A stretch of 64,000 bases of DNA from an uncultured Bordetella sp. (GTDB lineage: Bacteria > Pseudomonadota > Gammaproteobacteria > Burkholderiales > Casimicrobiaceae), in contig CAYGYQ010000001.1 of NCBI GenBank assembly GCA_964354035.1, positions 557-64,556 of the forward strand, in the 5' to 3' direction. The notes below the pieces were generated by a model that saw only the letters and a program-made list of their open reading frames with translations, did no database searches and was not told where the DNA came from. Positions 5,887 to 21,010 of the stretch are shown in pieces. The translations under genes and the position numbers were made by a program. The stretch's first letter is position 1; every line of letters begins with the position of its first letter.

Positions 5887-5961
5887 GTCGCCAGGTATTC
5901 GTTGGCCGGATTACAGGGGTCCGCTCGCGCGGCCATGCGTTGCCCGATGCAAGGCGGATCT

Positions 5962-6930: not shown

Positions 6931-7567
6931 CGGGAACCACCGGATGCCCGTGCCACATCCCGGCGATCGTGCGTTGCAGCCGCGGCAGCCGGCCGTGGAA
7001 GAAATGGCCGCAACCCGGGAACACGACGACCGGCAGCTCCTGCGGCCGCGCCCAGGCGAACACTTCCGCCAACGGCACAACGTCGTCCTCTTCGCCGTGG
7101 ATGACGATCGTGTCGGCGGGCAGGGGCGCGGGGGCGAAGCGCCGCACCGCGGGTCCCACCAGCACCAGCCGCTCGGCGGCCACTGACCGGGCGAGTTCGG
7201 TCTGCACGTAGGTTCCGAACGAGAAACCGGCGAGCACGACGGGCAGGGTGTCCGTCCGCGGGTCGAAGCGAGCCCGCGCGTGCGCGAGCGCCGCGAGCGC
7301 GTCGGCGGTCTCGCCGGCGCCATCGTCAAAGGTGCCCTGGGAGCGTCCGACGCCGCGGAAATTGAAGCGTACGGCAATGTAGCCGAGCGCGAAGAACGTC
7401 CTCGCCAGCGTCTGCGCCACCTTGTTGTCGAGCGTGCCCCCCTGCAGCGGATGCGGATGCGCGACCAGGGCGATGCCGCGCGGCGTGAGCGCGGGAACGT
7501 AGAGCGCAATTTCCAGCGCCCCGGCAGGGCCGTCGATCGTGCCGCGCTCGGTCGTCTTCGGCGTCAA
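6923..7567 (-). CDS. Alpha/beta hydrolase
   Basis: 214 aa with G-x-S-x-G nucleophile elbow (AGFSFGT) and a late GCGHFFHG motif. Confidence 0.7.
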   Translation of the reverse strand: MTPKTTERGTIDGPAGALEIALYVPALTPRGIALVAHPHPLQGGTLDNKVAQTLARTFFALGYIAVRFNFRGVGRSQGTFDDGAGETADALAALAHARARFDPRTDTLPVVLAGFSFGTYVQTELARSVAAERLVLVGPAVRRFAPAPLPADTIVIHGEEDDVVPLAEVFAWARPQELPVVVFPGCGHFFHGRLPRLQRTIAGMWHGHPVVPGA

Positions 7568-7872: not shown

Positions 7873-7987
7873 GGCGGAGTGGAACGTAGGGCGGCGCGGC
7901 CCGGCCGCGCGGCGGCCGCGTCGAGGGCGCGCGAAAGATTATAGCGGACGACCGCTTCGCCCCCGGGGCGCGCCGACTTGGCTCCGA

Positions 7988-7993
7988 TATAAT
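7988..7993 (+). promoter_or_regulatory. Candidate -10 box (TATAAT) upstream of msbA
   Basis: Perfect TATAAT 42 nt upstream of the msbA start. Embedded in CTCCGATATAATC, which recurs upstream of waaL. No convincing -35 box. Confidence 0.25.
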
Positions 7994-8034
7994 CGTCCGG
8001 TCCCTTCCCGGGGACGGCACGGCCGCGCTCTCCC

Positions 8035-9756
8035 TTGAATCACTTTCGCCGGATTCTCCGCTACATCCGTCCCTACCGGAGGGTGTTCGCGCTCGCGATC
8101 GTCGGCATGGTGATCGTCGCGTCGACCGACGTGATGATGCTGCGCATCGTCCAGCCGCTGCTCAACAACATCGGCGCGGTCAGTCCCGAGTCGACGTGGT
8201 GGCTGCCGTTCGCGCTGGTCGGCGTATTTCTCCTCCGCGGCGTCGGCTCCTACGTGAGCGACTACGGGCTCGCGTGGATCGGTTCGCGGGTCGTGTTCGA
8301 CCTGCGTTGCGAGGCCTCCGAGCACCTGCTGCGTATGCCCACGCCCTACTACGACGCGACCTCGGCCGGCTTCCTGCTCTCCAAGATCACGTTCGACGCC
8401 CAGCAGATCGCAGCCACGGCGTCCGACGCGCTCACGGTGGTCATCCGCAACACGCTGACGATCGCGTTCATGCTGGCCTACCTGCTGTACATCAACTGGC
8501 AGCTCACGCTGATCGCCTTCGCCGCATTTCCGCTGATCGGTTACGCGCTGAAGAAGATCAGCCGACGCCTGAAGCGGGTGAGCGTGCTCGTCCAGGAACG
8601 CACCGGCGCGCTCACGCACGCGCTGGAAGAGGCGATCGGCGCGCACCGCATCGTCAAGGTGTTCGGCGGCGAGCACTACGAGGCCGGGCGGCTGCGCCAC
8701 GCGGCGGACCGCCTGCGGCTCGCGATGGCGAAGCAGGCCGCCGCCTCCGCGCTCGGAACGCCGATCAACCAGATCATCATCTCCGTCGCGGTCGGCGTGA
8801 TCCTGTGGGTTGCAATTCGCAAGAGCGCCGGCGGCGAGTATGGCGCGGGCGACTTCATCGCCTACATGGCCGCGTTGCTGCACCTCCTCAACCAGCTGAA
8901 GACGCTGTCCAACGTGAACGCCGTGATCCAGCGCGGGATCACCGCGGCCGAGAGCGTCTTCGCGCTGATCGACGAGCAGCCGGAACCCGATACCGGCACC
9001 ATCACCCTCGGGCATGCGAGTGGCGGGATCCGCTTCGACCACGTTACCAAGCGGTATGCGGACAGCGGCCGGCCGGCACTGGTCGACGTCAGCCTGGAAA
9101 TCGTCCCCGGCGAGTCCGTTGCGCTGGTCGGACCCTCTGGCGGCGGCAAGACGACACTCGTCAACCTGATCCCGCGCTTCTACCTGCCGAGCGAAGGGCG
9201 GGTGCTGCTCGACGGCCAGGATCTGGCGACGATCAGGCTCGCCGATCTGCGGCGCCAGATCGCGCTGGTAAGCCAGGAGATCGTGCTGTTCAACGACACG
9301 ATCACGGCCAACATTGCCTACGGGACGATGACCGGCGCGTCGATGGAGGCGATCGAGCGCGCGGCCGTGGCGGCGAACGCGCTCGAGTTCATCCGGGCCC
9401 AGCCCGACGGCTTCAATACCGTCGTCGGCGAGCGCGGCATCCGGCTTTCGGGCGGCCAGCGTCAGCGCATCGCGATCGCGCGCGCGATTCTCAAGGACGC
9501 GCCGATCCTGATCCTCGACGAGGCGACTTCCGCCCTCGACACCGAGTCCGAACGGCTGATCCAGTCGGCGCTCGAGCAGCTGATGCGCGGGCGCACGACG
9601 ATCGTCATCGCGCACCGCCTGTCGACGATCGAGCATTGCGATCGCATCGTCGTGCTCGACGATGGCCGGATCGCCGAGCAGGGCACGCACGCGGATCTGC
9701 TCGCGCGCAAAGGCATCTACGCGCGGCTGCACTCGCGGCAGTTCCGCGAGGAGTGA
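8035..9756 (+). CDS. msbA: Lipid A export ATP-binding/permease protein MsbA
   Basis: 573 aa. N-terminal 6-TM ABC exporter domain, then Walker A GPSGGGKTT, signature LSGGQRQR and Walker B ILILDEATSALD. The TTG start at 8035 is uncertain. Confidence 0.85.
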   Translation: MNHFRRILRYIRPYRRVFALAIVGMVIVASTDVMMLRIVQPLLNNIGAVSPESTWWLPFALVGVFLLRGVGSYVSDYGLAWIGSRVVFDLRCEASEHLLRMPTPYYDATSAGFLLSKITFDAQQIAATASDALTVVIRNTLTIAFMLAYLLYINWQLTLIAFAAFPLIGYALKKISRRLKRVSVLVQERTGALTHALEEAIGAHRIVKVFGGEHYEAGRLRHAADRLRLAMAKQAAASALGTPINQIIISVAVGVILWVAIRKSAGGEYGAGDFIAYMAALLHLLNQLKTLSNVNAVIQRGITAAESVFALIDEQPEPDTGTITLGHASGGIRFDHVTKRYADSGRPALVDVSLEIVPGESVALVGPSGGGKTTLVNLIPRFYLPSEGRVLLDGQDLATIRLADLRRQIALVSQEIVLFNDTITANIAYGTMTGASMEAIERAAVAANALEFIRAQPDGFNTVVGERGIRLSGGQRQRIAIARAILKDAPILILDEATSALDTESERLIQSALEQLMRGRTTIVIAHRLSTIEHCDRIVVLDDGRIAEQGTHADLLARKGIYARLHSRQFREE

Positions 9757-9797
9757 GCGAGGGAGGCGGCAGCAGCAAGGGTGTGAACTCGGGTCAG

Positions 9798-9840
9798 CCG
9801 GCGCGTTGCTGCGCCGGGACGGCCGCGCGCAGCCCGTCCC
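9798..9840. terminator. Two GC-rich hairpins in the convergent msbA / acyltransferase gap
   Basis: CCGGCGC-gttgct-GCGCCGG (9798-9817) and GGGACGG-n11-CCGTCCC (9816-9840). No U-tract, so the terminator call is tentative. Confidence 0.3.
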
Positions 9841-9842
9841 CT

Positions 9843-11081
9843 TCAGCCGCGGCGCTTCGCCGCCCGCGGCGCGACGGCCTTCCACCGCCGATGCACCCAG
9901 TACCATTGCTCGGGCCGGGCGAGGATCAGGCCCTCGAGCGCGGCGTTGTACGCGCGCGTTGTGCGGCGGATCGCATCGTTGGTGTCTTCGGCTTCGATCG
10001 GCGCGATCGGCGCGCCGAACCGCAGCACGTGCCGGCCGTCGTCCTCCCGCCAGCTCGTGGCCGGAAGGACGGGCGCACCGGTAGCCAGAGCGATGATCGC
10101 CAGGCTCTTGAACGTCCAGGCCGGATGCCCGAAGAAATCAATCTCGATGCCATCGGGCGGATTCGCGTGCTGGTCGAACGGGAACACGATCACGTCGCCG
10201 GCGGCCAGCAGGTCGAGGATCCGGTCGAGCGAGCCTCGCTTGCCGATGACGCCGAAGCCCGCCTGGTTGAAGCGCCGCGTGACGAGCGCATCGAGCCAAG
10301 CCGGCTTGATCGCGCGGCGGACGAAATGGAACCGGCCGCGGAAGTCCGGATAGTGGGCGAGACCGGCGATCGTCGACACTTCCCAGTTGCCGAAATGACC
10401 CGTGAGCACGAGCACGCCCTTGCCCTGTTGCAGCGCGGCGCCGAACGCGTCGACGTTCTCTATGCGCACCAGCGCCGCCTTTTGCGCCGCCGACAGCCAC
10501 CGGAAGCGCAGGAATTCGCCGAGGAGCTGCCACAGGTGGCCGTAGTGGGCCTGCGCCAGCGTCGCGATCTGCGTTCCGGACAGAGTCTCGCCATAGACGC
10601 GCCGGAGATTGGCGAGGATGACCGAGCGGCGCAGCGGCAGGAAGCGAAAGAGGAACCGGCCGGCCGCCGGCACGGCCACGCTCGCGCGCTCGGCTTGCGC
10701 CACGGCCGAAGCGCTCAGGCGATCGTGTGTCAGCGACACCGCGATCGACGCGATGCGATGCCGCCCCAGGAGTTCCGTGGCGCGCGGCCCGCAAACGAGC
10801 CGGGGCGCGCCGTAGTTGTCGCGCGTGACCGAGAAGTCGGCCGGTTCGATCTGCCCCAGCGCCGCCGCGCGCGGGAACAGCTTGACGCACGCTTCCTTCG
10901 CGGCGAAGCGGGCGGCAAGGCTCGCCGCGCGGCCCGGTCCGTCGCCCGCGTCGGCGAGCTCGGTGTCGGAAAAGAGCTTGCGCAGATCGTCCGCCGGGGT
11001 CTCGGCAAGGAGGCGCTCGATCCTGGCGATCTCGACGGTGTCGATGCCGCAGCGGCCGGCCGGCGCAGGGGCGTCCGCCAT
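9843..11081 (-). CDS. Fusion protein: AcpS-type 4'-phosphopantetheinyl transferase (N) + LpxL/HtrB-family lipid A-type acyltransferase (C)
   Basis: The N-terminal ~125 aa reads GIDTVEIARIERL...LAARFAAKEACVKL...AVSLTHD (AcpS pattern). The C-terminal ~285 aa carries LTGHFGNWEV (the H-x4-E acyltransferase motif of the LpxL family). Confidence 0.8.
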   Translation of the reverse strand: MADAPAPAGRCGIDTVEIARIERLLAETPADDLRKLFSDTELADAGDGPGRAASLAARFAAKEACVKLFPRAAALGQIEPADFSVTRDNYGAPRLVCGPRATELLGRHRIASIAVSLTHDRLSASAVAQAERASVAVPAAGRFLFRFLPLRRSVILANLRRVYGETLSGTQIATLAQAHYGHLWQLLGEFLRFRWLSAAQKAALVRIENVDAFGAALQQGKGVLVLTGHFGNWEVSTIAGLAHYPDFRGRFHFVRRAIKPAWLDALVTRRFNQAGFGVIGKRGSLDRILDLLAAGDVIVFPFDQHANPPDGIEIDFFGHPAWTFKSLAIIALATGAPVLPATSWREDDGRHVLRFGAPIAPIEAEDTNDAIRRTTRAYNAALEGLILARPEQWYWVHRRWKAVAPRAAKRRG

Positions 11082-11103: not shown

Positions 11104-12381
11104 TTACGCCGCGCGGACCACGAGGGCGGCGTTGGTCCCCGCGAAGCCGCGACAGAGGATCAGTGCAACCTTGCTGCGCGGCTTCTGCGCGCCGGCCGAC
11201 ACGCAGACTCCGGCGCAGGCCGGATCGAGCCGCGCGAAGTTCGCCACGCCGGGCACCGTGCCGCGCGCGAGTGCCTCGAGCGCGAGTGCCGTTTCCAGAA
11301 TCCCGGCCGCCGCGATCGTGTGCCCGAGCGCCCACTTGAACGCGGTCATCGGCGGAGGTGCGGCGCCGAAGACGCGGCGCATTGCCGCGGCTTCCGAAAT
11401 GTCCGACTGCGGCGTGCCGTTGCCGTGCGCGACGACCATCCCGACGTCCGCGGGCGCGAGTTGCGCGCCGTAGAGCGCCTGGCTCGCCGCGCGCGCGAGG
11501 CCGTCGCCGTCGTCACGGATCGAGGTGAGACCCTGCGCTTCGCACGCGTAACCGCCGCCGAGGATTTCGCCCAGCACGGGCGCATTGCGCTCGGCTGCCG
11601 ACGCCTCGGTCTCCAGCAGCAGCGCGCCGGCGCCTTCGCCGAACAGGCTGCCGTCGTGCCGCGCGTCGAACGGCCGCAACGTCTCGCTGGCGAGCAACCC
11701 CAGCCGGTGGTAGTAGAGGATCATCTGCGGCTCGATCGGCGTTTCGTGTCCGACCGCGACGGCGCGGTCCGCCTCGCCGGTGCGCAGCGCCTCGAACGCC
11801 TCGATGACCGCCAGCGTGCCGCCGACGCTGTGGTTGGTGATGCACGCATTCGGCCCCTTGAGGCCGTGCCTGATGCCGATGTGGCCGAGCACGTTGTTGG
11901 GCAGGGTGCGCAGCAGCCACATCGGATTGACCGTGTTGGCAAGCTCGCGGCCGAACGCCGGCAGCTCGCCGCCGGCCGCGGCGAACAGCGGGAAGTAGTC
12001 GTACTGGTTCTCGTAGTTGCCGCCGCCCGAGCCGACGTAGACGCCGGTGCGGTCGCTGTACACGGCGGCGGCGCCGGCCGCCATCGCGCCGCGGTGAGCG
12101 ACGATGCCGGAGCCGTCGATCGCGCGCCCTGCAGCGTAGAGACCGACGAGGTCGGTGCGCCGGATCAGCTTGTGCAGCTTGCGGTCGTCGACGAGCGCGC
12201 GCGGATTGAATTCGGCGATCTCGGCCGCGCTGCGGCAGGGCCAGCCGGTCGTGTCCCATTGCGTGACCGGCGCGATTGCCGAGCGCCCCGCCAGGACCGC
12301 GTCGATAATCCGCTCCGGCGTCATCCCGGCGCCGCACACGGCGCCGGATCCGGTCACGACCACTCTGGGCAGTTTCGCCAT
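11104..12381 (-). CDS. Beta-ketoacyl synthase-like protein lacking the active-site Cys (chain-length-factor-like partner)
   Basis: 425 aa with a KS fold; the His motifs are kept (VAHGNGTPQSD, ALGHTIAAAG). In a hand alignment, NHSVGG aligns with TACASG of the neighbouring KS, putting Ser where the catalytic Cys sits. Confidence 0.8.
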   Translation of the reverse strand: MAKLPRVVVTGSGAVCGAGMTPERIIDAVLAGRSAIAPVTQWDTTGWPCRSAAEIAEFNPRALVDDRKLHKLIRRTDLVGLYAAGRAIDGSGIVAHRGAMAAGAAAVYSDRTGVYVGSGGGNYENQYDYFPLFAAAGGELPAFGRELANTVNPMWLLRTLPNNVLGHIGIRHGLKGPNACITNHSVGGTLAVIEAFEALRTGEADRAVAVGHETPIEPQMILYYHRLGLLASETLRPFDARHDGSLFGEGAGALLLETEASAAERNAPVLGEILGGGYACEAQGLTSIRDDGDGLARAASQALYGAQLAPADVGMVVAHGNGTPQSDISEAAAMRRVFGAAPPPMTAFKWALGHTIAAAGILETALALEALARGTVPGVANFARLDPACAGVCVSAGAQKPRSKVALILCRGFAGTNAALVVRAA

Positions 12382-12399: not shown

Positions 12400-13713
12400 T
12401 CAGGCGCCGGCGACGCCGTCGACTGCTTCGGGATGGCGGACGACCACGCAGCTGTTCGAGCCGCCGAAGCCGAAGGAGTTGGACATCGCCACGCGAATGC
12501 GCTGCCGCCGCGGCGCGCCGGTGACGAAGTTGAGGTCGCAGTCGGGATCGCGCTCCACCAGGTTCGCGTTGATCGGCATTTCGCCGCGGTGGACGGCGAG
12601 CGCGCAGACCGCGACCTCGACCGCCCCGGCCGCCGCGATCAGGTGCCCCATCGTGCTCTTGGTCGAGCTCACGTTGACGCGCATGACGTCGGCGCCGAAG
12701 ACGGCGCGCGTCGCCGCGGTCTCGCTGCGATCGTTCATTCCCGTCGACGTCCCGTGCGCGTTCAGGTAGCCGACGTCCGCCGGCGCCGCGCCGGCGTCCT
12801 TGAGCGCTGCGCGCATCGCCTGGATCGGCCCGTCGCCGTCCGGCGGCGAATCGGTGATCCGGTAACTCGACAGCGAATTGCCGTCACCGGCGAGCTCGGC
12901 GTAGATCCGCGCGCCGCGGCGGCGCGCGGCTTCCCATTCCTCGAGCACCAGAAAGCCGGCGCCCTCGCCCAGCAGAAATCCGTTGCGGGTCGCGTCGAAC
13001 GGGCGGCTTGCGCGCTGCGGCGTCGCATTGTCCGCCGACAGCGCGGAGAGCAGGCAGAATCCGGAAATCCCGATCGGGCTGATCATCGAGTCGAAGCCGC
13101 CGGCGAGAACGCTGTCGACGGCGCCGCGGCGGATCAGCTTCAGTGCGGTGCCGAGCGCCTGTCCGCCCGACGCACAGGCCGTGTGCACCGAGGTCGCGTA
13201 ACCGCGGATGTCGTAGCGCCGGGTGAGCAGCGAAATGCCGGCGGTCGCCTGGCTGCGGCAGAACACCATCGGGTCATTCGCCGCCGGGTCGGTCAGCAGC
13301 CGGTCCGCATGGAGCTCGCCGTCGGCCGCACTGTGCCCGAACGTCGTGGCGAGATCGCCGAAGTCGGAGGTCATCATTCCCGCGCCGACCGCGCAGCCCC
13401 AGCGCGTCGCGGTGGCGGCCGTTGGCCGCACGCCCGCGTCGCGAAAGGCCTGCTCCGCCGCGGCGAGCGCGAAACGGTGCGAGCGGTTCGTGTACTTCCG
13501 CTGCTTGCGCTCGACGCAATCGTCATCGCGGAAATTCTTCACTTCGGCGGCGATGTGAACCGGGAATCCGCTGGCGTCGAACAGGCTGATCTCCGCGCCG
13601 CCGCTGCGGCCGGCGAGGAGCGCGTCCCACGTCGTTGCCACGTCGTTGCCGACCGGCGTGACGAGTCCGATGCCGGTGATGGCGACGCGGCGCCTGGGTC
13701 CGGCGGTGGTCAT
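12400..13713 (-). CDS. Beta-ketoacyl-ACP synthase II-type (FabF-like)
   Basis: 437 aa with catalytic triad motifs HTACASGG, NAHGTSTGMND and MGHLIAAAG. Confidence 0.9.
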   Translation of the reverse strand: MTTAGPRRRVAITGIGLVTPVGNDVATTWDALLAGRSGGAEISLFDASGFPVHIAAEVKNFRDDDCVERKQRKYTNRSHRFALAAAEQAFRDAGVRPTAATATRWGCAVGAGMMTSDFGDLATTFGHSAADGELHADRLLTDPAANDPMVFCRSQATAGISLLTRRYDIRGYATSVHTACASGGQALGTALKLIRRGAVDSVLAGGFDSMISPIGISGFCLLSALSADNATPQRASRPFDATRNGFLLGEGAGFLVLEEWEAARRRGARIYAELAGDGNSLSSYRITDSPPDGDGPIQAMRAALKDAGAAPADVGYLNAHGTSTGMNDRSETAATRAVFGADVMRVNVSSTKSTMGHLIAAAGAVEVAVCALAVHRGEMPINANLVERDPDCDLNFVTGAPRRQRIRVAMSNSFGFGGSNSCVVVRHPEAVDGVAGA

Positions 13714-13879: not shown

Positions 13880-14725
13880 TCATGGCCGTGCTGCCTTTGC
13901 GAGGACCTCGAGGCGCGCGGTGGCGGCCGTCTTGCCGTCCATCCGCGCGGCGAGGCGCAAGGTCGCGCCTTCGGGGCCGGAGGGGACCAGTTCCGCGTCG
14001 ATGTCGACCGCCGCGCCCGGTGGCATGAACGAGCGCATCTTCACGTGCGTCATCCGCGAGGGGGCGGGCTTGGTGCCGGTGCGCCAGTGCGTCGCCTCGG
14101 CAGCCACGCCCATCGCCAGACCGATCTGTGAGTCGAGCAAGAGCGTCGCCGGGAAGACCGGCCGGCGCGGGAAATGGTCGCCGAAGAAGGGTGCCGACTC
14201 CGGGACGAACAGCGTCGCGCTGGCGCAGACGCCAGGGACGCCGGCCGTGCGCACGACGCGTGGCGCCTCGACGCCGCGGAAACGGCCCGCCGGCGCGCCC
14301 TTGCCGCAGATGAGCTCGAAGCGCGCCGCGAGCTCGGCGGGCGAATCGAACTCCTCGACCGGCAGCATCGGACCGAGGCAGTCGACAAGCTCGATCACGT
14401 GCGTACCGTCGACGCTGGCGCGCCCGGCATAGGCGACCGCGTGCTCGTCGCAGCTTTCGATGTCGACGGCGAGATCGAGCGTGCTCCCGGGGGCGACCCC
14501 CGATCGGAAGCGCGTCTCGTTGGCGAGCGCCGCAACGGGCCGGCCGCGAAAGCCCACCTGCGCCATCGCGACCCACGCCGCGAGCTGTCCCACGGCCTCG
14601 GCGACGAGGCAAGGGGGGAACGCCGCGAGGTCCGCCGGCACCGCGTAGCGCCCGCGCGCGCGCCGTCCCGCGTCGTACTCGACGATGCGGTCGACGAACG
14701 AGAAGGCTGCGAAGTGATCATCCAT
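13880..14725 (-). CDS. Double-hotdog 3-hydroxyacyl-ACP dehydratase (FabA/FabZ-like di-domain)
   Basis: 281 aa, about twice FabZ length. The C-terminal half carries the FabZ-like FFGDHFPRRPVFPATLLLD motif. The N-terminal half looks hotdog-like but has no obvious His motif. Confidence 0.75.
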   Translation of the reverse strand: MDDHFAAFSFVDRIVEYDAGRRARGRYAVPADLAAFPPCLVAEAVGQLAAWVAMAQVGFRGRPVAALANETRFRSGVAPGSTLDLAVDIESCDEHAVAYAGRASVDGTHVIELVDCLGPMLPVEEFDSPAELAARFELICGKGAPAGRFRGVEAPRVVRTAGVPGVCASATLFVPESAPFFGDHFPRRPVFPATLLLDSQIGLAMGVAAEATHWRTGTKPAPSRMTHVKMRSFMPPGAAVDIDAELVPSGPEGATLRLAARMDGKTAATARLEVLAKAARP

Positions 14726-14761: not shown

Positions 14762-15190
14762 TCAGCCGGCCACCTTCGTCTCGCGCTGGGCCGCCACGAC
14801 GAGCTTGCAGAAGGTTTCGGTCGTGAACAGTCGCGGGATGTCCTTGACCTTGGTCGGGGTCTTGAAGCGTTCGGGCGGAACTTCGGACAGGTACGAACGA
14901 AGCTGCGCGAGGCCGACGTCGGTGACGAGGCCGTTCTGCTCGAATTGCGCCTCGGTCAGCGTGCCGCGGGCGTTCTCGACGATCTTGCCGCGCGGAATCT
15001 TCACCTTGAACGCGCGCTCGAGGCGAAAGACCATGTCGAGGAAGTCGATGGACTCCGCGTCGAGGTCGTCGATGAGCGACGCATCCGGCTTGACGTCCTC
15101 GAGGTCGCAGCCCAGCGCGTCGGCAATGGTCGCCGCGACTGTCGGCAGTACCGCGAGGATGTCTTCTTGGGATATTTGCGCTTGCGTCAT
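14762..15190 (-). CDS. Acyl carrier protein with long C-terminal extension
   Basis: ATG at 15190 preceded by GGGAG. Phosphopantetheine-attachment context LIDDLDAESIDFLDMV. The 142 aa is about 60 aa longer than a canonical ACP. Confidence 0.8.
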   Translation of the reverse strand: MTQAQISQEDILAVLPTVAATIADALGCDLEDVKPDASLIDDLDAESIDFLDMVFRLERAFKVKIPRGKIVENARGTLTEAQFEQNGLVTDVGLAQLRSYLSEVPPERFKTPTKVKDIPRLFTTETFCKLVVAAQRETKVAG

Positions 15191-15204: not shown

Positions 15205-15975
15205 TCATTCCATTTTGAATCCGCCGTCGACGGCGAACACCTGGCCCGTGACGTAGTCCGCGTACGCCGAAACGAGAAACCACACCGCGTAGGCGACTTC
15301 CTCCGGCCGGCCGTAGCGCTTGAGCAGGATGCGCGCCTTCACTTCGTCGCCGGCCATCTCGCGCACGTCCTTCGACATGTCGGTGTCGATCACGCCGGGC
15401 GCGACACAGTTCACGTTGATCTTGCGCGGCGCGAGCTCGACCGCGAGCGCGCGTGTGAACGCATTGATCGCGCCCTTGCTCGCGGCGTAATTGGTCTGGC
15501 CCCGGCCGCCCTTTTCGCCCGCCACCGAGCTGATGTTGACGATCCGGCCGGCGCGCTGGGACACCATGTAGGGCACCACCGCGCGGGTCACGTTGAACAC
15601 GCCGGTGACGTTGGTGTCGAGCACGACCGCGACGTCGTCGTCGTCGAACGCAGCGAGCGGGTTGTCGCGGATGGTGCCCGCGTTGTTGACGAGAATGTCG
15701 ATCCGGCCGCAGCGCTCGGCGATGCCTTCGACGGCCGCTGCGCAGGCCTTCGAGTCGCGGATGTCGACCTGCAGGGCGGCGATCGTGTGCCCGGCGGCGC
15801 GGCCCTCCGCCACGACGGCATCGGCGGCCGCCGCATTGCCGCGATAGAAGAAGGTCACGTCCGCACCCTCCGCCGCCAGCAACAGGGAGATGGCGCGGCC
15901 GATGCCGCGGCTGCCTCCGGTGACGATGGCGGACTTGCCGGATATTCCGGGGTCGGGGCGCATGCGCGGCATCAT
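15205..15975 (-). CDS. 3-oxoacyl-ACP reductase (FabG-like SDR)
   Basis: TGGSRGIG cofactor motif and classical Y-x3-K (YAASK). The ATG at 15975 forms an ATGA overlap with the upstream stop; ATGs at 15972 and 15963 are alternatives. Confidence 0.85.
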   Translation of the reverse strand: MMPRMRPDPGISGKSAIVTGGSRGIGRAISLLLAAEGADVTFFYRGNAAAADAVVAEGRAAGHTIAALQVDIRDSKACAAAVEGIAERCGRIDILVNNAGTIRDNPLAAFDDDDVAVVLDTNVTGVFNVTRAVVPYMVSQRAGRIVNISSVAGEKGGRGQTNYAASKGAINAFTRALAVELAPRKINVNCVAPGVIDTDMSKDVREMAGDEVKARILLKRYGRPEEVAYAVWFLVSAYADYVTGQVFAVDGGFKME

Positions 15976-16727
15976 CCCGAAATGGCGAAGCCGCCGTCGA
16001 TCACCAGTGTATGACCGTTGATCATCGCAGCTTCGGGAAGGCAGAGCAGATAGACGGCTCCGGCGACGTCCTCGGGCGTGAGCACCGGCCCCGCGGGCGA
16101 GCGTGCCGCGAAGTTCGCGAGCAGTTCGTCCCGGTTCGGGAAGTAGGCGAGCGCGTCGGTGTCGACGACGCCGGCGCTTACCGTGTTGACCCGGATGCCG
16201 CGCGGCCCGAGCTCCTGCGCCAGCGCCCGCGCCAGCGACTCCAGCGCGGCCTTCGACGCGCCGATGAAGCCGTAGCCGGGCATGGCCCGCTGCGCGCCCA
16301 GGCTCGACATGGCGACGATGCGCGCGCCGGACGGCATCAGCGGCAGGCCGCGCTGGGCGAGCAGATTGAGCGCGAGCGCGTTGGTCTCCATGCACCAGCG
16401 CCAGTGCTTGAGCGTCATCTCGACCGTCGGCTTCAGGACGCCCGACGCGGCGTTGCTGACCAGGATGTCGAGCCGGTCGAAATGCCGGCCGAACTCGGCA
16501 AAGATCTCGTCGACCGAATCCGGGATGCCGACGCTGCCCTGGATGGCGACCGCGCGGCGCCCGAGGGCGCGAATCTCGACGCAGAGGGTATCAGCCTCGT
16601 CGGCGCTGTTGTAGTAGTTGACCGCGACGTCGCAACCCTCGCGGGCAAGCTTCAGCGCGACGGCGCGGCCGATGCCGCGCGCGGCGCCGGTGACGAGAGC
16701 GACTTTTCCGGCCAACACACCCGGCAT
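15972..16727 (-). CDS. Enoyl-ACP reductase-like SDR (FabL/FabI-type)
   Basis: TGAARGIG motif and Y-x6-K spacing (YGFIGASK), typical of enoyl reductases rather than ketoreductases. ATG at 16727 has an AGGAA RBS; GTG 16769 is an alternative start. Confidence 0.75.
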   Translation of the reverse strand: MPGVLAGKVALVTGAARGIGRAVALKLAREGCDVAVNYYNSADEADTLCVEIRALGRRAVAIQGSVGIPDSVDEIFAEFGRHFDRLDILVSNAASGVLKPTVEMTLKHWRWCMETNALALNLLAQRGLPLMPSGARIVAMSSLGAQRAMPGYGFIGASKAALESLARALAQELGPRGIRVNTVSAGVVDTDALAYFPNRDELLANFAARSPAGPVLTPEDVAGAVYLLCLPEAAMINGHTLVIDGGFAISG

Positions 16728-16793
16728 GGTGGGATTCCTGCTGCGTTCTGCGATCATGGAACCCGGCACTTGCGCCGGGGGCAGGCGAAAGTA

Positions 16794-17876
16794 TTATTTT
16801 AACCTGTCCGCTACGGCGCGCCTGGCGCGGATGAGGCGCTGCGCCTCGATCGTCCAGTGCTTCTTGACGCTGTACCAGACGTCGGCTGCCCACAACACCC
16901 CGTCGCCGGCCTCCGCCGGTGGCGTCGCGACGCCGGCGTCGGCGGCCCGGTAGGCATCGATCCAGGCGCGCGTTGCGGGGTCCGCGGCGAGCCGTTCCGT
17001 GTCGGGCACGAAGACGTGGTTGTACCACGCCGGCAGCATCACGCCGCGCACGAGCGTGTTGCCGTCGCGGCGGAAACTGATCGCGTCCTCGTCGCCAGGA
17101 TAGGTCCAGGCGAAGAAATCGAGCCCGATGGCGAAGCCGGTGAACTCGTCCACTGCGTCCGGGATCGTGCGCATCTTCCCCACCATGCTCCACTGGTTGG
17201 GCAAGAGCAGCGCCGCGCCGCCGGCGCCCACGACGGAAACGTAGGAAACGCTCAGGCCAACGACCGGCCGTTCGGCACCCGTCAGCGGATCGACGATGGA
17301 CGTGCGAATCTCCGCGGCGTCCGCCAATGGATTCCAGACACGGATCGGGTCGTCGAACCGCCCTGCCAGCTCGTAGAGCACCTTGATGGCCTGGATCCCG
17401 CCCTGGCTGTGGCCAATCATCATCGGCCGCATGCCGTCGCGCTCGTAATGCCAGGCGATGAACCCGGCGATCTGCGCACTGTGCTCGTAGGGACTGTGCG
17501 ACCAGCGCCCGTCCCCCGGGTGTCGGATGCGGCTCTCGGGGTAGCCCATGCCGGTGAGGAGCCGGCCGGCGGACTCCATCATCAGGTAGACAGGGTAGAT
17601 GCCGCCATGGAGCAGGATGATGCGCGGCGCCGGGCCCTTGGCGAGCGTGTCGCGCACATCGTCGGCGGTGACCTGTTCCGGATCGAGGGCAAGAATCCGG
17701 TCTTCGAGCGCACGGTCGATGGCCAGCGATCGGAGAACGGCGTGCGCCGCGGGTCGGGTCAGGACACCGGCGTCGGGGGCCGCGACCGGCCGCGTCGCGC
17801 AGCCGCCGCCGGCCAGCGCGACGATGGTGACGGCCGCCACCAGCGCGATGCGGCGAAGAAGGGGGCGGGAGATCAT
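16794..17876 (-). CDS. Secreted (possibly lipoprotein) serine hydrolase, GHSQGG type, paralog A
   Basis: ATG at 17876 forms an ATGA overlap with the upstream stop. Signal peptide ...VALAGGGCA, nucleophile elbow MIGHSQGG, C-terminal WYSVKKHWTIEAQRL shared with paralog B. Confidence 0.65.
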   Translation of the reverse strand: MISRPLLRRIALVAAVTIVALAGGGCATRPVAAPDAGVLTRPAAHAVLRSLAIDRALEDRILALDPEQVTADDVRDTLAKGPAPRIILLHGGIYPVYLMMESAGRLLTGMGYPESRIRHPGDGRWSHSPYEHSAQIAGFIAWHYERDGMRPMMIGHSQGGIQAIKVLYELAGRFDDPIRVWNPLADAAEIRTSIVDPLTGAERPVVGLSVSYVSVVGAGGAALLLPNQWSMVGKMRTIPDAVDEFTGFAIGLDFFAWTYPGDEDAISFRRDGNTLVRGVMLPAWYNHVFVPDTERLAADPATRAWIDAYRAADAGVATPPAEAGDGVLWAADVWYSVKKHWTIEAQRLIRARRAVADRLK

Positions 17877-19171
17877 GAGTCGAGATGCGTCCAGCAGCCG
17901 ACCATGCCGTCGGCGATCTGGTCGATGTTCGCTGCGGTGAACACGGCGCGCTGATACGAAATGCCCGCGTGCAGAACGCCGGCGGCGATGGTCACCGTGA
18001 CGACCACCGGCGCCAGCGGGCCGGTGGAGACTGCGCGCAGGTATTCGGGGGTCGGCATTCGTCCGCCGGCATTTTCCCAGAGCGCGTCGACGTTGGCCAG
18101 CGTGACCGCCCCCCACGTCGGGTAATGCTTCGCGTAGAAGCCCGCGCGCTGCTCGCGCGACAGGAAGCGCCACAGCGCGCCGCTTACGGCGATTCCCAGC
18201 AGACTCTGCAGGTAGAGCTTCGCGCTTCTGATGCGCGCGGTCTCGGCGTGAATGTCGCGCGCGAGCTGCTCCAGTGCAATGCCGGGTGGCAGCGGATGGG
18301 AAACGCGGAATGAGCTCAGAAACTGGCCGAAGGTGACGTTGGGATCGTAGCCCAAATCGCGTCGAAGATTGACGATCGACGCGACGGCGAGTTCATGCCG
18401 GCGCTCCTCCGGCGCACGTTCGCCCACGAAGGGTTCCAGCGCCCGCAGCAAGGTCGCGAGCAACAGGTCGTTGACGGTGACGCCCCAGGCGCGCGCCGCG
18501 CCGACGAGCGCCACGAGCTCCGGCGGGTCGAGGCGGCGATACGCGAACCCGCTGGCGGGACTCCCGCCTTGCAGGCCGCGCGGCCGCACGGTACGCCCGC
18601 AGCTCGCTGCGATCGTCCGCAGGAAGCGCATGCCCATGAGTGCCGGGGCGGCTTGCTGGACAAACAGCCGTCCAAAGGTCGCCGGGTAGCGGTCCAGGCG
18701 ACGGACAGGCGGCGCTTCGGGCTTGTCGCCGAGGTAGCGGGAGAAGATGCCCTCGAGCAGGACCACGATCGAGTCGCCGCCGGCGATCACGTGGTCGTAG
18801 GCAAGGCCGAGGTGGAACCACGGCCCGCTGTCGATGCAGAAGAACCGGAATGGATTCAGCCTGCCATCGCGCACGAAAGGGAGGTTGAGCTCACGTTCGA
18901 TCGTCATCGCCAGCACTTCGCTCGGCTGGCTGCCGCCCGCGTGGACGACAAGCGCCACCTCCGCCGGTCCCCCCGTGTACTCGAAGCGGCGGCGCGTGAC
19001 GTCGAGCATGAAGCCGGTGAGCCCGAGCGCGTCGAGCTGGCGCCCGATGAGCGTCTTCAGTCGCCCGGCGTCGAGCGGACGGTCGATGCGGCCCACGTGA
19101 ATCGCGGTATACGGATGCAGATCCCGCCAGCGCAGCATCGCCGCCTGGAACAGGTTCAGGCGCCCCTTCAC
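17873..19171 (-). CDS. Condensation / WS-DGAT / PapA5-like acyltransferase-fold protein
   Basis: 432 aa with a GTG start in a GTGA overlap. Variant of the HHxxxDG motif (AYDHVIAGGDS). No signal peptide. Family assignment rests on motif and size only. Confidence 0.5.
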   Translation of the reverse strand: MKGRLNLFQAAMLRWRDLHPYTAIHVGRIDRPLDAGRLKTLIGRQLDALGLTGFMLDVTRRRFEYTGGPAEVALVVHAGGSQPSEVLAMTIERELNLPFVRDGRLNPFRFFCIDSGPWFHLGLAYDHVIAGGDSIVVLLEGIFSRYLGDKPEAPPVRRLDRYPATFGRLFVQQAAPALMGMRFLRTIAASCGRTVRPRGLQGGSPASGFAYRRLDPPELVALVGAARAWGVTVNDLLLATLLRALEPFVGERAPEERRHELAVASIVNLRRDLGYDPNVTFGQFLSSFRVSHPLPPGIALEQLARDIHAETARIRSAKLYLQSLLGIAVSGALWRFLSREQRAGFYAKHYPTWGAVTLANVDALWENAGGRMPTPEYLRAVSTGPLAPVVVTVTIAAGVLHAGISYQRAVFTAANIDQIADGMVGCWTHLDS

Positions 19172-20196
19172 TCAGCGCCCCGGCGTTGTGCACCGACGAG
19201 CCGCCTCGCTTCGATCGTCCAGTGCCGCTTCACGCTGTGCCAGATGTCGGCGGCGTGCACGAGGTTGGTGGTGTCCACGCCGGCGCTGTCCGGGAGCGCA
19301 GCGTTGCCATCGGGCACGTACGCCTCGATCCACGCCCGCGTGGCCGGGTCGTTCGCGAGATGAAGGGTTTCCGGCAGCCCGATGTGCGTGTACGCCGCCG
19401 GGAGGATCACGTTGCGCACGGTCGCGGATCCCTTGGCAAGGTAGGGATCGGAGCGCGGGAACAGCCCGGCGATGAGATCCCACTCGATGGCGAAACCGGT
19501 GAATTCCTCGGTGGTGTCCGGGATTTCGCGGAGCTTCGCCAGCATCTCCCATTGGCCAAGCAGGACGCGCGCAAGCTTCCCGGTGGCGAGCGCAGCGACG
19601 TAGGGGAGCCGGAAGCCGACGACGGGCCGCGTGTGACCGCTCAGGGGATCGACGATCACCGAGCGCGGCAGCGGCGCGTCCGTCACCGGATTCCAGACCG
19701 GGATAGAGTCTCCGAATGCGCCGGCAAGCTCGTGCAGCACGCGGATGGCCATCATTCCGCCCTGGCTGTGCCCGATCATCAGCGGACGCACGCCTTCGGA
19801 CTCGTAATACCAGGCCAGCGTGCCCGCAATCTGCCGGCTGTCCGTGAAGCTGCTCGACGAATAGCTGCCGTCGCGCGGATGCCTGACCCGGTCGGGCGGA
19901 TATCCCATGGCGACCAGGAATTCCGCCAAGGGCGCCATGGTGATCAGGGCGAAGCTGCCCTGGAACAGGACGATTCTCGGCGCCGGTACCCGCGCCAGGA
20001 CCTCGGCGACCTCACGCCCGCTGACGCGGTCCGGATCCAGCGCGAACAGACGCTCCACGACGGCCGGATCGTGGCCGGCGGTACCCGTTGGCGCTGCAGT
20101 CACGTCCGTCCACGCGCCGGCGGGCAGTGCCGCGGCCGCGATGAACGCGAGTGCGGAGAGCCATGGTGGAACCGAAACCGCAGGGAGCATGCGCAT
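19168..20196 (-). CDS. Secreted serine hydrolase, GHSQGG type, paralog B
   Basis: ATG at 20196. Signal peptide MRMLPAVSVPPWLSALAFIAAAALPAGA. MIGHSQGGMMAIRVLHELAG and C-terminal WHSVKRHWTIEARRL parallel paralog A. Confidence 0.65.
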   Translation of the reverse strand: MRMLPAVSVPPWLSALAFIAAAALPAGAWTDVTAAPTGTAGHDPAVVERLFALDPDRVSGREVAEVLARVPAPRIVLFQGSFALITMAPLAEFLVAMGYPPDRVRHPRDGSYSSSSFTDSRQIAGTLAWYYESEGVRPLMIGHSQGGMMAIRVLHELAGAFGDSIPVWNPVTDAPLPRSVIVDPLSGHTRPVVGFRLPYVAALATGKLARVLLGQWEMLAKLREIPDTTEEFTGFAIEWDLIAGLFPRSDPYLAKGSATVRNVILPAAYTHIGLPETLHLANDPATRAWIEAYVPDGNAALPDSAGVDTTNLVHAADIWHSVKRHWTIEARRLVGAQRRGAE

Positions 20197-20219
20197 GCCG
20201 AAGCGCGACCGCGGCGCAG

Positions 20220-20840
20220 TCAGCGCGCCGGGCGGCGGGGGAGGAAACGGCCCGTCCTCCGCAGGTATCGCGCATAGGCATCGCCGTGCACCGCGGAAAG
20301 ATGGCGTTCCTCGTTGCGCGCCTTGAGGTTCATGAGAACGATGTGCACGGCCGCGATCAGCATCATCGGCAAGGTGGGCACGATCGCCACCGTGCAGAGC
20401 ATCAGCAGGATGGAAAACGCGTAGATGGGGTGCCGGACGCGCGCGAACAGCCCGTCGGTGATGAGGTCTGTCTTGCGTTCGAGGCCGACATCCATCCGCC
20501 AGTCGCTGCCCATCCGCAGCCAGCAGCGAACCGTGCCGGCGAGCGCGGTCACGGCGACAAGCGCGGCGACCCAGCGCAACGCGGCGAACGCGGGCTCGCG
20601 CAACGCGAAGTCGGGTAGTGCCGGAACGGCCCCCGACCGCGTGAGCGTCGCCCAGGGTACGCAGATCCAGGCGGCGACCAGCGGCACCCAGACGAGCCAC
20701 ATGAGGCGTTCCTGCCGCTGTTCGGGCACGAGCCCGACGACCTTGCGCGTATGCCGGCGCACGCGGGCGATCATCACCCCGACCCCGACCCAGTACGACG
20801 AAACCGTGGCGACCAGCACGGCGAGAGGAAGATCTTGCAT
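20220..20840 (-). CDS. ICMT/PEMT-family membrane methyltransferase
   Basis: 206 aa from ATG 20840, multi-TM. C-terminal signature DGLFARVRHPIYAFSILL...ARNEERHLSAVHGDAYARYLRRTGRFLP, typical of isoprenylcysteine carboxyl / phospholipid methyltransferase-like proteins. Confidence 0.7.
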   Translation of the reverse strand: MQDLPLAVLVATVSSYWVGVGVMIARVRRHTRKVVGLVPEQRQERLMWLVWVPLVAAWICVPWATLTRSGAVPALPDFALREPAFAALRWVAALVAVTALAGTVRCWLRMGSDWRMDVGLERKTDLITDGLFARVRHPIYAFSILLMLCTVAIVPTLPMMLIAAVHIVLMNLKARNEERHLSAVHGDAYARYLRRTGRFLPRRPAR

Positions 20841-21010
20841 CGGTGGAGGATTCCAGCGTCGCTTCGGGACGTCACCACGACGCGGGCGGCCGCAAACGGA
20901 AAACGTGCCCTTCGCCACGGCGCCGTGCCCTCTCATTATGCCAGTGTCGGGTCGCGCGCAGGGCGGCAGGATATCCTCCGGCCACCGGCGTTCGCCGCCG
21001 GGGCCTCCGA

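Follow-up and report, generated by a model that had tools for sequence, protein, structure and literature searches.

In a 64,000-nucleotide stretch of DNA (the window) from an uncultured Bordetella sp. of the Casimicrobiaceae, one minus-strand gene joins an AcpS-type phosphopantetheinyl transferase (PPTase) to an acyltransferase of the LpxL/PatA fold in a single 412-residue protein. The fusion is confirmed as a real, conserved gene whose two domains are intact and under selection, and it closes a conserved seven-gene operon made up of two SDRs, an ACP, a double-hotdog dehydratase, a ketosynthase (KS), a CLF-like KS and the fusion itself. We lean, if only slightly, toward the reading that the protein, soluble or peripheral to the membrane, is bifunctional and catalyzes both the opening and the closing step of a private fatty-acid pathway, with lipid A as the likeliest acceptor. 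The genes and domains that bear on this reading lie in the window as follows.

8035..9756, plus strand: MsbA-like ABC exporter (TMD+NBD), convergent with the fusion gene
9843..11081, minus strand: whole fusion gene, 412 aa (P0002), ATG at 11081 and TGA at 9843-9845
9867..10655, minus strand: anchorless LpxL/PatA-fold acyltransferase domain, residues 143-405, with the H229-x4-E234 dyad (GHFGNWE) and D303-Q304
10656..10685, minus strand: inter-domain linker, residues 133-142 (about 10 residues), mean identity 0.38
10686..11054, minus strand: AcpS-type (group I) PPTase domain, residues ~10-132, with D14 (GID), R20, K62-E63-A64, K67 and H119
11104..12381, minus strand: KS-like partner (CLF-like), in which Ser replaces the catalytic Cys (NHSVGGT) and both His are kept, as aligned to FabF 8z5c
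12400..13713, minus strand: FabF-type ketosynthase (TIGR03150, 434 bits)
13880..14725, minus strand: double-hotdog dehydratase with two FabZ/FabA-like halves (ApeI-like in relatives)
14762..15190, minus strand: dedicated 142-aa ACP with a DAES attachment site (PP-binding E 1.7e-9)
15205..15963, minus strand: FabG-type ketoreductase (SDR); the listed ORF start is too early, the protein having 252 aa in relatives
15972..16769, minus strand: second SDR (adh_short_C2, enoyl-ACP-reductase-like), first gene of the seven-gene core
16794..20936, minus strand: optional accessory cassette of GHSQGG hydrolases A and B, a condensation/PapA_C-like protein and an ICMT/PEMT-like methyltransferase

The preliminary description had read the fusion as a single 412-aa ORF, and positions 9843-11081 of the minus strand indeed hold one open frame, with a GC3 (0.88) like that of the real genes of the window. 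The motifs it quoted (GIDTVEIARI, RFAAKEACVK, SLTHD and HFGNWE) are all found in the protein, and profile searches support both of the domains it named (Pfam, with which NCBIfam concurs). The chance that a sequencing or assembly error joined two adjacent genes is vanishingly small. It is true that the source genome is a fragmented metagenome-assembled genome of 359 contigs and that separate, overlapping acpS and acyltransferase genes exist in one distant relative, but hundreds of assemblies made independently of one another show the same single frame, among them long contigs and members of two phyla, and the linker of the orthologues preserves both its frame and its length. Both Pfam domains occur together in more than 120 database clusters (74-91% identity, 403-441 aa), and a stretch spanning the junction is present in 135 of 201 Casimicrobiaceae genomes. 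This recurrence of the frame effectively refutes an artefact and rules out a stop or frameshift splitting the ORF. Two candidate divergent fusions, P0187 and P0213, were rejected as frameshifted metagenome calls. Downstream of the fusion, a 655-aa minus-strand ORF (7939-9906) is spurious, being the antisense of the msbA-like gene (GC3 0.66 vs 0.91).

An AF2 model of the monomer (pLDDT 89, pTM 0.86) predicts two halves that match the AcpS fold and the PatA/LpxM folds. The N-terminal half matches ACPS (PF01648) at residues 11-99 (E 4e-10, 40.1 bits vs a cut-off of 25) and passes TIGR00556 (54.6 vs 45.35), with a score of 50.6-53.5 bits, below the cut-off of 59.8, on the housekeeping holo-ACP synthase equivalog TIGR00516. 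Scores on the latter model range from 37 to 60 bits across fused domains, as against 87-123 for the stand-alone AcpS of sister genera. Vibrio cholerae AcpS (3qmn) aligns along the full length of the fused domain, with D14, E63 and K67 matched, and the modeled fold reaches TMt 0.78-0.84 to 3qmn, 5vcb and 5xuh (pLDDT above 90 at residues 11-132). The domain thus shares with stand-alone AcpS (3qmn, E. coli 5vcb and B. subtilis 1f7l) its fold, its full length, the Mg-binding Asp and Glu and the Lys, and differs from them in being fused to a 270-aa acyltransferase. The residues D14, R20, K62-E63-A64, K67 and H119 are invariant across 13 orthologues, and the motifs are retained in the Verrucomicrobiota copies too; as far as such conservation can tell, catalytic competence of the AcpS domain is supported. 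Its identity to any stand-alone AcpS is only 31-34%, sister genera included, and a recent capture of the family's housekeeping acpS was rejected because the fused domain is no nearer to the AcpS of sister genera (at most 34%, with no match in some) than to distant ones. The dN/dS values of 0.25 for the AcpS domain and 0.30 for the acyltransferase domain, against 0.75 for the linker, point to similar purifying selection on both domains.

The fused AcpS domain also finds sequence and fold matches in the C-terminal PPT domain of the fungal type I FAS alpha-subunit (2was, 4v58, 8prv). In fungal FAS, an AcpS-type PPTase lies covalently within the machinery whose ACP it primes, a case of self-priming. 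The difference is that the fungal PPTase is fused to an ACP-containing synthase megaenzyme, whereas its partner in the present protein is the acyltransferase that off-loads a dissociated type II system.

The C-terminal half matches Lip_A_acyltrans (PF03279) at residues 138-401 (E 2e-37, 129.5 bits vs a cut-off of 22.3), the profile being matched only from its position 39 onward. H229 and E234 are invariant among 48 sequences, D303 and Q304 are invariant as well, and catalytic competence of this domain, too, is supported by what its residues suggest. LpxL and LpxM carry an N-terminal membrane anchor, and the peripheral mycobacterial PIM acyltransferase PatA uses an acyl-CoA donor and a glycolipid acceptor. 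The fused acyltransferase shares the PF03279 fold and the H-x4-D/E dyad with both groups, resembles PatA in having no transmembrane helix, and would presumably share an acyl-ACP donor with LpxL and LpxXL. A search of the domain for a transmembrane segment found none (maximum KD19 1.44 vs 2.13 at the N-terminus of the genome's own LpxL), and a helix is likewise absent from the unfused orthologues of loci L145-L150; the idea that AcpS had replaced a membrane anchor was rejected on the latter ground. Its top NCBIfam matches are all lipid A late acyltransferases, but it reaches none of the NCBIfam lipid A equivalog cut-offs (PRK08419 138.9 vs 248, PRK06553 93 vs 273), and its 71.2 bits on the PatA family NF005919 fall below the cut-off of 209. 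In the AF2 model its best fold match is PatA (TMt 0.85), against 0.68 for LpxM. The assignment to an LpxL-type lipid A lauroyl/myristoyl transferase made in the preliminary description therefore holds at the level of the superfamily and fails at that of the specific family, given the missing N-terminal helix, the scores below the equivalog cut-offs and the best fold match to PatA. A protein from a 'Rhizobium sp.' metagenome-assembled genome (L100) was rejected as a genuine LpxXL, since its gene adjoins lpxK outside the VLCFA cluster and it scores below the cut-off. The nearest stand-alone acyltransferases (P0138, P0141, P0143, P0132 and P0135) are encoded on contigs that are too short or in unrelated contexts.

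The dedicated, non-housekeeping ACP that had been placed at 14762-15190 proved real: it scores 38 bits on TIGR00517 against a cut-off of 70.45, and the canonical AcpP of the source genome, on contig C241, scores 121 bits on the same model. The 142-aa protein is extended at its C-terminus by about 60 residues, which are conserved. Its best PDB sequence match is the R. palustris specialized ACP RPA2022 (2kw2/3lmo; E 1.6e-8), and its highest TM-score is also to 3lmo (TMq 0.53 vs at most 0.39 for ordinary ACPs, with a Foldseek E of only 0.02). This ACP is the presumed substrate of both fusion domains. A literature search on AcpS-LpxL fusions, Casimicrobiaceae lipids and RPA2022 found nothing relevant.

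Among known systems, the rhizobial acpXL-lpxXL cluster for very-long-chain lipid A comes closest; it yields lipid A with an (omega-1)-hydroxy acyl chain of C26-C30. We take NF005079 to be the model of the rhizobial ACP, and PRK06501 and PRK06519 to be those of the XL synthases FabF1XL/FabF2XL. On the first, the 142-aa ACP scores 43 against a cut-off of 83; on the other two, the KS pair scores 300.8 vs 629 and 72.6 vs 320, below the 434 of generic FabF, so that by their scores the KS genes do not appear to be orthologues of the rhizobial XL synthases. The rhizobial/Brucella cluster has the order acpXL-fabZXL-fabF2XL-fabF1XL-(adhA2XL)-lpxXL (PMC5613085, PMC11901934), and the two systems have in common the succession of a dedicated ACP, a dehydratase, two KS genes and an LpxL-family acyltransferase. 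The carrier described here, nearest in sequence and fold to the AcpXL-type ACP of R. palustris, may be of that type as well, and the two systems presumably share the logic of a private carrier feeding a private late acyltransferase. The rhizobial cluster contains no PPTase, and none is mentioned in the A. fabrum paper. In addition, the operon described here brings its own ketoreductase and second SDR, its dehydratase is a fused double-hotdog, one of its KS proteins has Ser for Cys, its ACP is about 40 aa longer (142 aa vs ~92-100) and its acyltransferase has no transmembrane anchor.

Of 12 Casimicrobiaceae genera sampled, 5 have the fusion, which is also present in two other Burkholderiales families and in Verrucomicrobiota, all of the carriers found being metagenome-assembled genomes. 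It is thus unusual, as had been claimed, but not rare, being abundant in soil metagenomes and present in two phyla. The whole order SDR, SDR, ACP, dehydratase, KS, CLF, fusion is syntenic in 13 longer loci, KS-CLF-fusion is kept in 25 of 26 further loci, the CLF-like gene directly precedes the fusion in the loci examined, and the Verrucomicrobiota carriers have a long ACP about 3.8 kb upstream of the fusion. An unfused operon of low-GC Gammaproteobacteria (L145-L150) has the order SDR, FabG, long ACP, double-hotdog dehydratase, KS, CLF, acyltransferase in common with it, at 28-61% identity. There it ends in the acyltransferase alone (L146-L150) or, in L145, in a separate 123-aa acpS gene that overlaps a 288-aa acyltransferase gene. 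These three operon ends link the PPTase and acyltransferase activities in the manner of a Rosetta stone. The accessory cassette lists, in order, exported GHSQGG hydrolase A, the condensation/PapA_C-like protein, exported GHSQGG hydrolase B and the methyltransferase; by tblastn, two or three of the first three lie by the operon in all eight loci examined from genera g1, g22, g23, g27 and g28, and none of them does in L015, L016, L031 and L032. Three g1-type loci were examined (L026, L015 and the window), and they are the only ones in which the MsbA-like gene adjoins the fusion. The operon is a portable fatty-acid cassette of soil Betaproteobacteria and Verrucomicrobiota.

What the fused AcpS domain does in the cell could be read in two other ways. 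It might be a pseudo-enzyme without transferase activity that only docks the ACP or trimerizes the acyltransferase. We consider this very improbable: some rare metagenomic relatives are degenerate (P0135 has no GxD and KRA in place of KEA, and P0131 has lost the His), but no catalytic or ACP-binding residue varies among the Betaproteobacteria and Verrucomicrobiota copies, dN/dS is 0.25, and L145 has a separate, normal-looking acpS at the same position of the operon. It might, on the other hand, be the only AcpS-type enzyme of the cell and prime the essential AcpP and not the operon ACP alone, in which case the housekeeping function would have come to reside in the fusion. According to the preliminary description, the same polypeptide primes and unloads the dedicated ACP; L145 and the Verrucomicrobiota do tie the PPTase to the operon, but dedicated priming is what we infer from this, and AcpP may be used too. 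Across the family, stand-alone acpS and the fusion are mutually exclusive: genera g19, g24, g20, g21 and g26 have a canonical acpS (87-123 bits) without the fusion, and genera g1, g22, g23, g27 and g28 have the fusion and no canonical acpS, their other PPTases being of the Sfp type. In the source genome, a second ACPS match (contig C228) was dropped as a housekeeping AcpS once Pfam showed an Sfp-type enzyme next to an AMP-binding gene, and the Sfp-type gene that the clade usually carries beside lpxL is absent at that locus. In genome G1274, moreover, the separate acpS of the operon is the sole acpS-type gene and, with 81 bits, lies above the acpS cut-off. With stand-alone acpS missing from the source genome and from the relatives that bear the fusion, AcpP too could be a substrate of the fused domain. 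This housekeeping role nevertheless seems unlikely to us, although clearly less so than an inactive domain. No acpS-type gene was found in the operon-less g1 and g22 genomes or in the g25 genomes (8 of 8), all of which have an Sfp-type PPTase and must nonetheless prime AcpP; 4 of 5 fusion-bearing Verrucomicrobiota genomes retain a canonical acpS (114-122 bits) alongside the fusion; and the fused domain is highly diverged from every AcpS, as its TIGR00516 scores and identities given above indicate.

The acceptor is a further point of doubt. The same fusion logic could serve a glycolipid, a lysophospholipid or an amino-lipid, with the hydrolases, condensation-like enzyme and methyltransferase of the accessory cassette then modifying the product, and we regard this as a possible, if less probable, outcome. 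It would be consistent with the closer structural match to PatA than to LpxM, with the missing anchor in fused and unfused orthologues alike and with the failure to reach any lipid A equivalog cut-off, features that make lipid A only the likeliest acceptor. Genes for an MsbA-like exporter, a WaaL-like protein and a heptosyltransferase (GT9) flank the operon in the source genus, which favors lipid A, but this LPS adjacency is confined to that one genus, while the accessory-cassette genes co-occur in loci from five genera. Conversely, the top sequence-family matches are all lipid A late acyltransferases (139 bits vs 71 for the PatA family), the ACP resembles the lipid A-specific AcpXL type, and the gene order copies that of the VLCFA lipid A cluster. 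The number of lpxL genes adds little: sister genera without the fusion have two in tandem, and among the five fusion-bearing genomes checked four have one plus the fusion and the fifth has two, but operon-less g1 and g22 genomes also have a single lpxL, which weakens the argument that the fusion is the second late acyltransferase. A lipid A precursor remains the likeliest acceptor.

Based on these observations, we propose a mechanism for the bifunctional enzyme of a private pathway. The AcpS-type domain would use CoA and Mg2+ to transfer the phosphopantetheine arm onto the 142-aa, AcpXL-like ACP of the operon. Judging from their domain content, the KS/CLF-like pair, the ketoreductase, the double-hotdog dehydratase and the second SDR would then build on this ACP a chain of defined, and probably long, length. 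Lastly, the acyltransferase domain, through its H229/E234 dyad, would move the acyl chain from the ACP to a hydroxyl group of a membrane lipid. If the acceptor is a lipid A precursor, the system would correspond to the rhizobial acpXL-lpxXL one, with a PPTase of its own in addition. With its own primer, the cassette would be independent of the PPTase repertoire of its host. This is in keeping with the finding of the cassette in two phyla, and also in hosts where Sfp-type enzymes have taken the place of AcpS.

AcpS is a homotrimer with active sites at the subunit interfaces. A bolder extension of the proposed mechanism, which we hold to be rather improbable, has a trimeric AcpS core holding three acyltransferase domains, the AcpS domain also serving as the docking site that passes one and the same ACP molecule on from priming to unloading, in a self-contained, host-independent plug-in. 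If true, the cassette would add a new long acyl chain to an outer-membrane lipid of any recipient Gram-negative host. This would account both for the spread of the cassette between Betaproteobacteria and Verrucomicrobiota and for lineages having kept it after losing AcpS.

The PPTase on which a dedicated ACP depends is normally encoded at another site in the genome. In the present case primer and off-loading enzyme form one protein, and one operon supplies everything but malonyl transfer. The separate, fused and absent states of acpS at the end of the same operon argue with unusual clarity that the specificity of the PPTase is important to specialized ACPs, and lipid acylation might be engineered with a compact enzyme that both primes and unloads a single orthogonal ACP. 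For the organisms themselves, the fusion gene is a genomic marker for a putative membrane-lipid modification, probably long-chain, in Betaproteobacteria and Verrucomicrobiota that are abundant in soil but uncultured. Should lipid A be the acceptor, outer-membrane stiffening of the VLCFA type would reach past Alphaproteobacteria and Legionella.

The gene at 9843-11081 on the minus strand encodes, in a single 412-aa ORF, an AcpS-type phosphopantetheinyl transferase (PPTase) domain (Pfam ACPS, residues 11-99) followed by an LpxL/PatA-fold acyltransferase domain (Lip_A_acyltrans, residues 138-401). Both matches exceed their Pfam gathering scores and an NCBIfam search recovers the same two halves; the preliminary description, which had read one ORF here and quoted motifs from each half, was correct on the frame, and all of its motifs are found. 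The GC3 of the gene (0.88) is that of the window's other real genes (window GC, 68%). The window's genome is a fragmented MAG (359 contigs, 89.8% complete), and a stop or frameshift splitting the gene had been raised as a concern; the continuous frame nevertheless recurs in more than 120 database clusters holding both domains (74-91% identity, 403-441 aa), and a junction-spanning query (residues 1-200) is matched in 135 of 201 genomes of the same GTDB family, a tally that includes one genome flagged as unpublished (G212), of which our conclusions are independent. The unbroken frame is therefore no assembly error. Database labels call the protein only 'LpxL/LpxP family acyltransferase' or 'PPTase superfamily protein'.

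The fusion is the final gene of a co-directional minus-strand set, listed here with its neighbours.

Features of the window around the fusion gene
2056-2904, minus: weak Y2_Tnp (IS91-type) transposase fragment, upstream of an rlmL-like gene
5098-5886, minus: NodJ-like ABC-2 permease, beyond msbA
about 5962-6885, minus: NodI-like ABC ATPase, beyond msbA
6923-7567, minus: small alpha/beta hydrolase, beyond msbA
8035-9756, plus: MsbA-like ABC exporter, convergent with the fusion gene
9843-11081, minus: operon gene 7, fusion (ORF call, Pfam and NCBIfam domains)
operon gene 6, minus: KS-like protein (CLF) with Ser at the nucleophile position
operon gene 5, minus: FabF-type KS
operon gene 4, minus: 281-aa double-hotdog dehydratase
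operon gene 3, minus: 142-aa ACP
operon gene 2, minus: FabG-type SDR
operon gene 1, minus: SDR of adh_short_C2 type (domain searches)
16794-20936, minus: accessory block of four genes, upstream of the core

By tblastn, the seven-gene core is present, its order unchanged, in 12 longer loci representing five genera of the family, two other Burkholderiales families and one metagenome contig; a 13th, shorter locus (L011) holds KS, CLF and fusion. The accessory block comprises two paralogous exported or lipoprotein GHSQGG serine hydrolases (A and B), a condensation/PapA_C-like protein with an atypical DHVIAGGD motif and an ICMT/PEMT-like methyltransferase. Of the genes for hydrolase A, the condensation-like protein and hydrolase B, two or all three occur in each of the eight loci examined in genera g1 (the window's type), g22, g23, g27 and g28, and tblastn found none of them in L015, L016, L031 or L032. 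The msbA-like gene adjoins the fusion in the three examined g1-type loci (L026, L015 and the window), and waaL-like and heptosyltransferase genes are adjacent, beyond the cassette, in L015 and the window. Synteny of the NodI/NodJ/hydrolase arrangement (5098-7567) is confined to g1. The Y2_Tnp fragment suggests a mobile-element scar, and a 655-aa minus-strand ORF abutting the fusion (7939-9906) was rejected as an antisense shadow of the high-GC msbA-like gene.

The alignment of the AcpS half to V. cholerae AcpS is full-length, and the acyltransferase half is alignable with PatA and A. baumannii LpxM. In an AF2 model computed from 48 homologues (mean pLDDT 89, pTM 0.86), Foldseek matches the N-terminal part to V. 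cholerae and E. coli AcpS (TMt 0.78-0.84) and the C-terminal part to PatA (0.81-0.85) and LpxM (0.68); no solved chain among these matches spans both halves. Across 13 orthologues from three families, no substitution occurs at D14, R20, K62, E63, K67 or H119 in the AcpS half, or at H229, E234, D303 or Q304 in the acyltransferase half. The AcpS and acyltransferase domains have pairwise dN/dS values of 0.25 and 0.30, and the ten-residue linker has 0.75, figures that are rough owing to synonymous divergence close to saturation. A search along the fusion protein found no hydrophobic segment of transmembrane strength, unlike the genome's ordinary LpxL (contig C69), which has the usual N-terminal helix. 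This helix is also absent from unfused acyltransferases at the same operon position (loci L145-L150), which rules out anchor loss as a result of fusion and makes anchorlessness a trait of the acyltransferase subfamily.

The preliminary description had taken the cluster's ACP to be distinct from the housekeeping carrier, and this holds: the operon ACP reaches 38 bits with the AcpP model, below its cut-off of 70.45, and a canonical AcpP (121 bits) lies on contig C241 of the same genome. Among PDB sequences the operon ACP is matched best by the R. palustris 'specialised acyl carrier protein' 2kw2/3lmo (E 1.6e-8), the AcpXL-type carrier for the very-long-chain fatty acids of lipid A. The top TM-score of its AF2 model (pLDDT 80) is likewise with 3lmo (TMq 0.53, against at most 0.39 for ordinary ACPs), with weak Foldseek E-values. 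The operon ACP also has a strongly conserved C-terminal extension of about 60 residues.

A long-ACP search of 400 genomes of the class located the operon in 11 further genomes of eight other families. Among the seven loci retrieved, the high-GC L144 ends in the fusion; L145 (positions 8534-9747 of the locus, which lies on G1274:C62 of a low-GC gammaproteobacterium) ends in separate genes for a 123-aa AcpS and a 288-aa acyltransferase; and the five low-GC loci L146-L150 end in a stand-alone acyltransferase of about 290 aa with no acpS. The operon thus has three end states, of which the fusion is one. In L145 the acpS start overlaps the CLF stop and the acpS end overlaps the acyltransferase start by 25 nt, and the fusion would most simply have arisen by loss of the stop between such overlapping genes.

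Within the family, the fusion occurs in g1 (37/46), g22 (45/47), g23 (47/47), g27 (3/3) and g28 (2/2) and was not found in g19 (0/34), g25 (0/12) or five smaller genera. Among 400 sampled genomes of the order it is found in this and two other families (f45, f23); in a 400-genome sample of the phylum no junction-spanning match exists beyond the window's own genome, the other two matches being stand-alone AcpS. A pattern scan of 185,579 species genomes places it in Casimicrobiaceae, other Betaproteobacteria MAGs and eight Verrucomicrobiota MAGs (44-58% identity); every carrier found is a MAG. KS and CLF lie directly upstream in all of these loci but L065, whose flank holds the CLF end only, and a long ACP lies about 3.8 kb upstream in four of five Verrucomicrobiota carriers searched. 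The ESM Atlas independently holds four clusters of this architecture; of the three shown, two consist mainly of Pseudomonadota and the other is from Verrucomicrobiota. The Verrucomicrobiota fusions are monophyletic in a maximum-likelihood tree (support 95/97), with a Betaproteobacteria clade (93/91) as their sister group, which would fit a single old transfer between the phyla, in either direction. Three metagenome proteins (P0135, P0132 and P0131, from L012, L025 and L011) are rare distant fusions with partly or fully degenerate AcpS motifs and an intact acyltransferase dyad; in the tree P0131 clusters with two acyltransferases that stand alone, a grouping that points to the AcpS domain having been lost secondarily. 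Other LpxL-domain fusions in the ESM Atlas involve GT9 heptosyltransferase II (Verrucomicrobiota) and a Mito_fiss_Elm1 domain (Omnitrophota).

The assignment of the second half to the lipid A lauroyl/myristoyl-transferase family stands as far as the Lip_A_acyltrans match and the top NCBIfam matches, all lipid A late acyltransferases; no curated NCBIfam cut-off is reached, PatA is the best fold match and the protein lacks a membrane anchor. We rate lipid A as acceptor at about even, with another membrane lipid as the lesser candidate at about a third. In favour of lipid A, the operon order mirrors acpXL-fabZXL-fabF2XL-fabF1XL-lpxXL of the VLCFA lipid A cluster (PMC5613085, PMC11901934), which shares a dedicated ACP and an LpxL-family acyltransferase, and the ACP resembles the AcpXL type. 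In the window the operon lies among genes for LPS export and the LPS core, but this adjacency is limited to one genus. Sister genera carry two tandem lpxL genes, as against one plus the fusion in four of five fusion-bearing genomes checked (the fifth, G051, has two); a single lpxL, however, also occurs in operon-free g1 and g22 genomes, and the accessory genes suggest that the chemistry may be more elaborate.

PPTases integrated in the machinery they prime are already known, as in the PPT domain of the fungal FAS alpha-subunit, recovered among the fusion's database matches, and so are dedicated ACP-plus-LpxL systems such as the VLCFA cluster. We found no literature describing a type II system whose off-loading acyltransferase is joined to an AcpS. 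The fusion is a real feature; its functions are predicted from sequence.

An acpS equivalog-model search of family genomes at least 90% complete detects stand-alone acpS (87-123 bits) in the fusion-free genera g19, g24, g20, g21 and g26, and the fused domain only (37-60 bits) in fusion-bearing genera, the sole exception being one genome that is 9% contaminated; where g1 and g22 genomes lack the operon, this model gives no acpS-type match. The Sfp-type PPTase shows the opposite distribution to stand-alone acpS (g1 23/24, g22 66/73, g23 28/31, g27 2/2, g28 2/2, g25 8/8; g19 0/20); both tallies include G096, flagged as unpublished, without bearing on our conclusions. The other PF01648 match in the window's genome was rejected as an AcpS, being a 237-aa Sfp-type enzyme adjoining an AMP-binding gene. 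Genera lacking AcpS have one canonical lpxL and, next to it on the other strand, an Sfp-type PPTase gene that is conserved in the clade (G007:C10, L052 2106-3952; G045:C17, L053 2707-4367; also G056, G051, G049, G147, G111 and G198), a second PPTase-LpxL association within the same genomes.

With acpS absent and the Sfp-type enzyme present, the clade appears to have swapped AcpS for the latter in general duty, as P. aeruginosa does, and the fused AcpS is gained and lost together with the operon. We consider this domain probably dedicated to the operon's ACP rather than serving both uses. Canonical acpS (114-122 bits) is retained in four of five Verrucomicrobiota carriers, and identity between the fused domain and any stand-alone AcpS is only 31-34%, sister genera being no closer. 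Against a purely dedicated role, the contiguous lpxL locus of the window's genome lacks the Sfp-type gene usual there (C69, L051 4194-5795: lpxL-rimP, no PPTase between), and in the distant, 99% complete G1274 the operon's acpS passes the equivalog cut-off and is the only acpS-type gene found. The strongest comparative evidence that the PPTase is a functional part of the operon's pathway comes from the operon's three end states.
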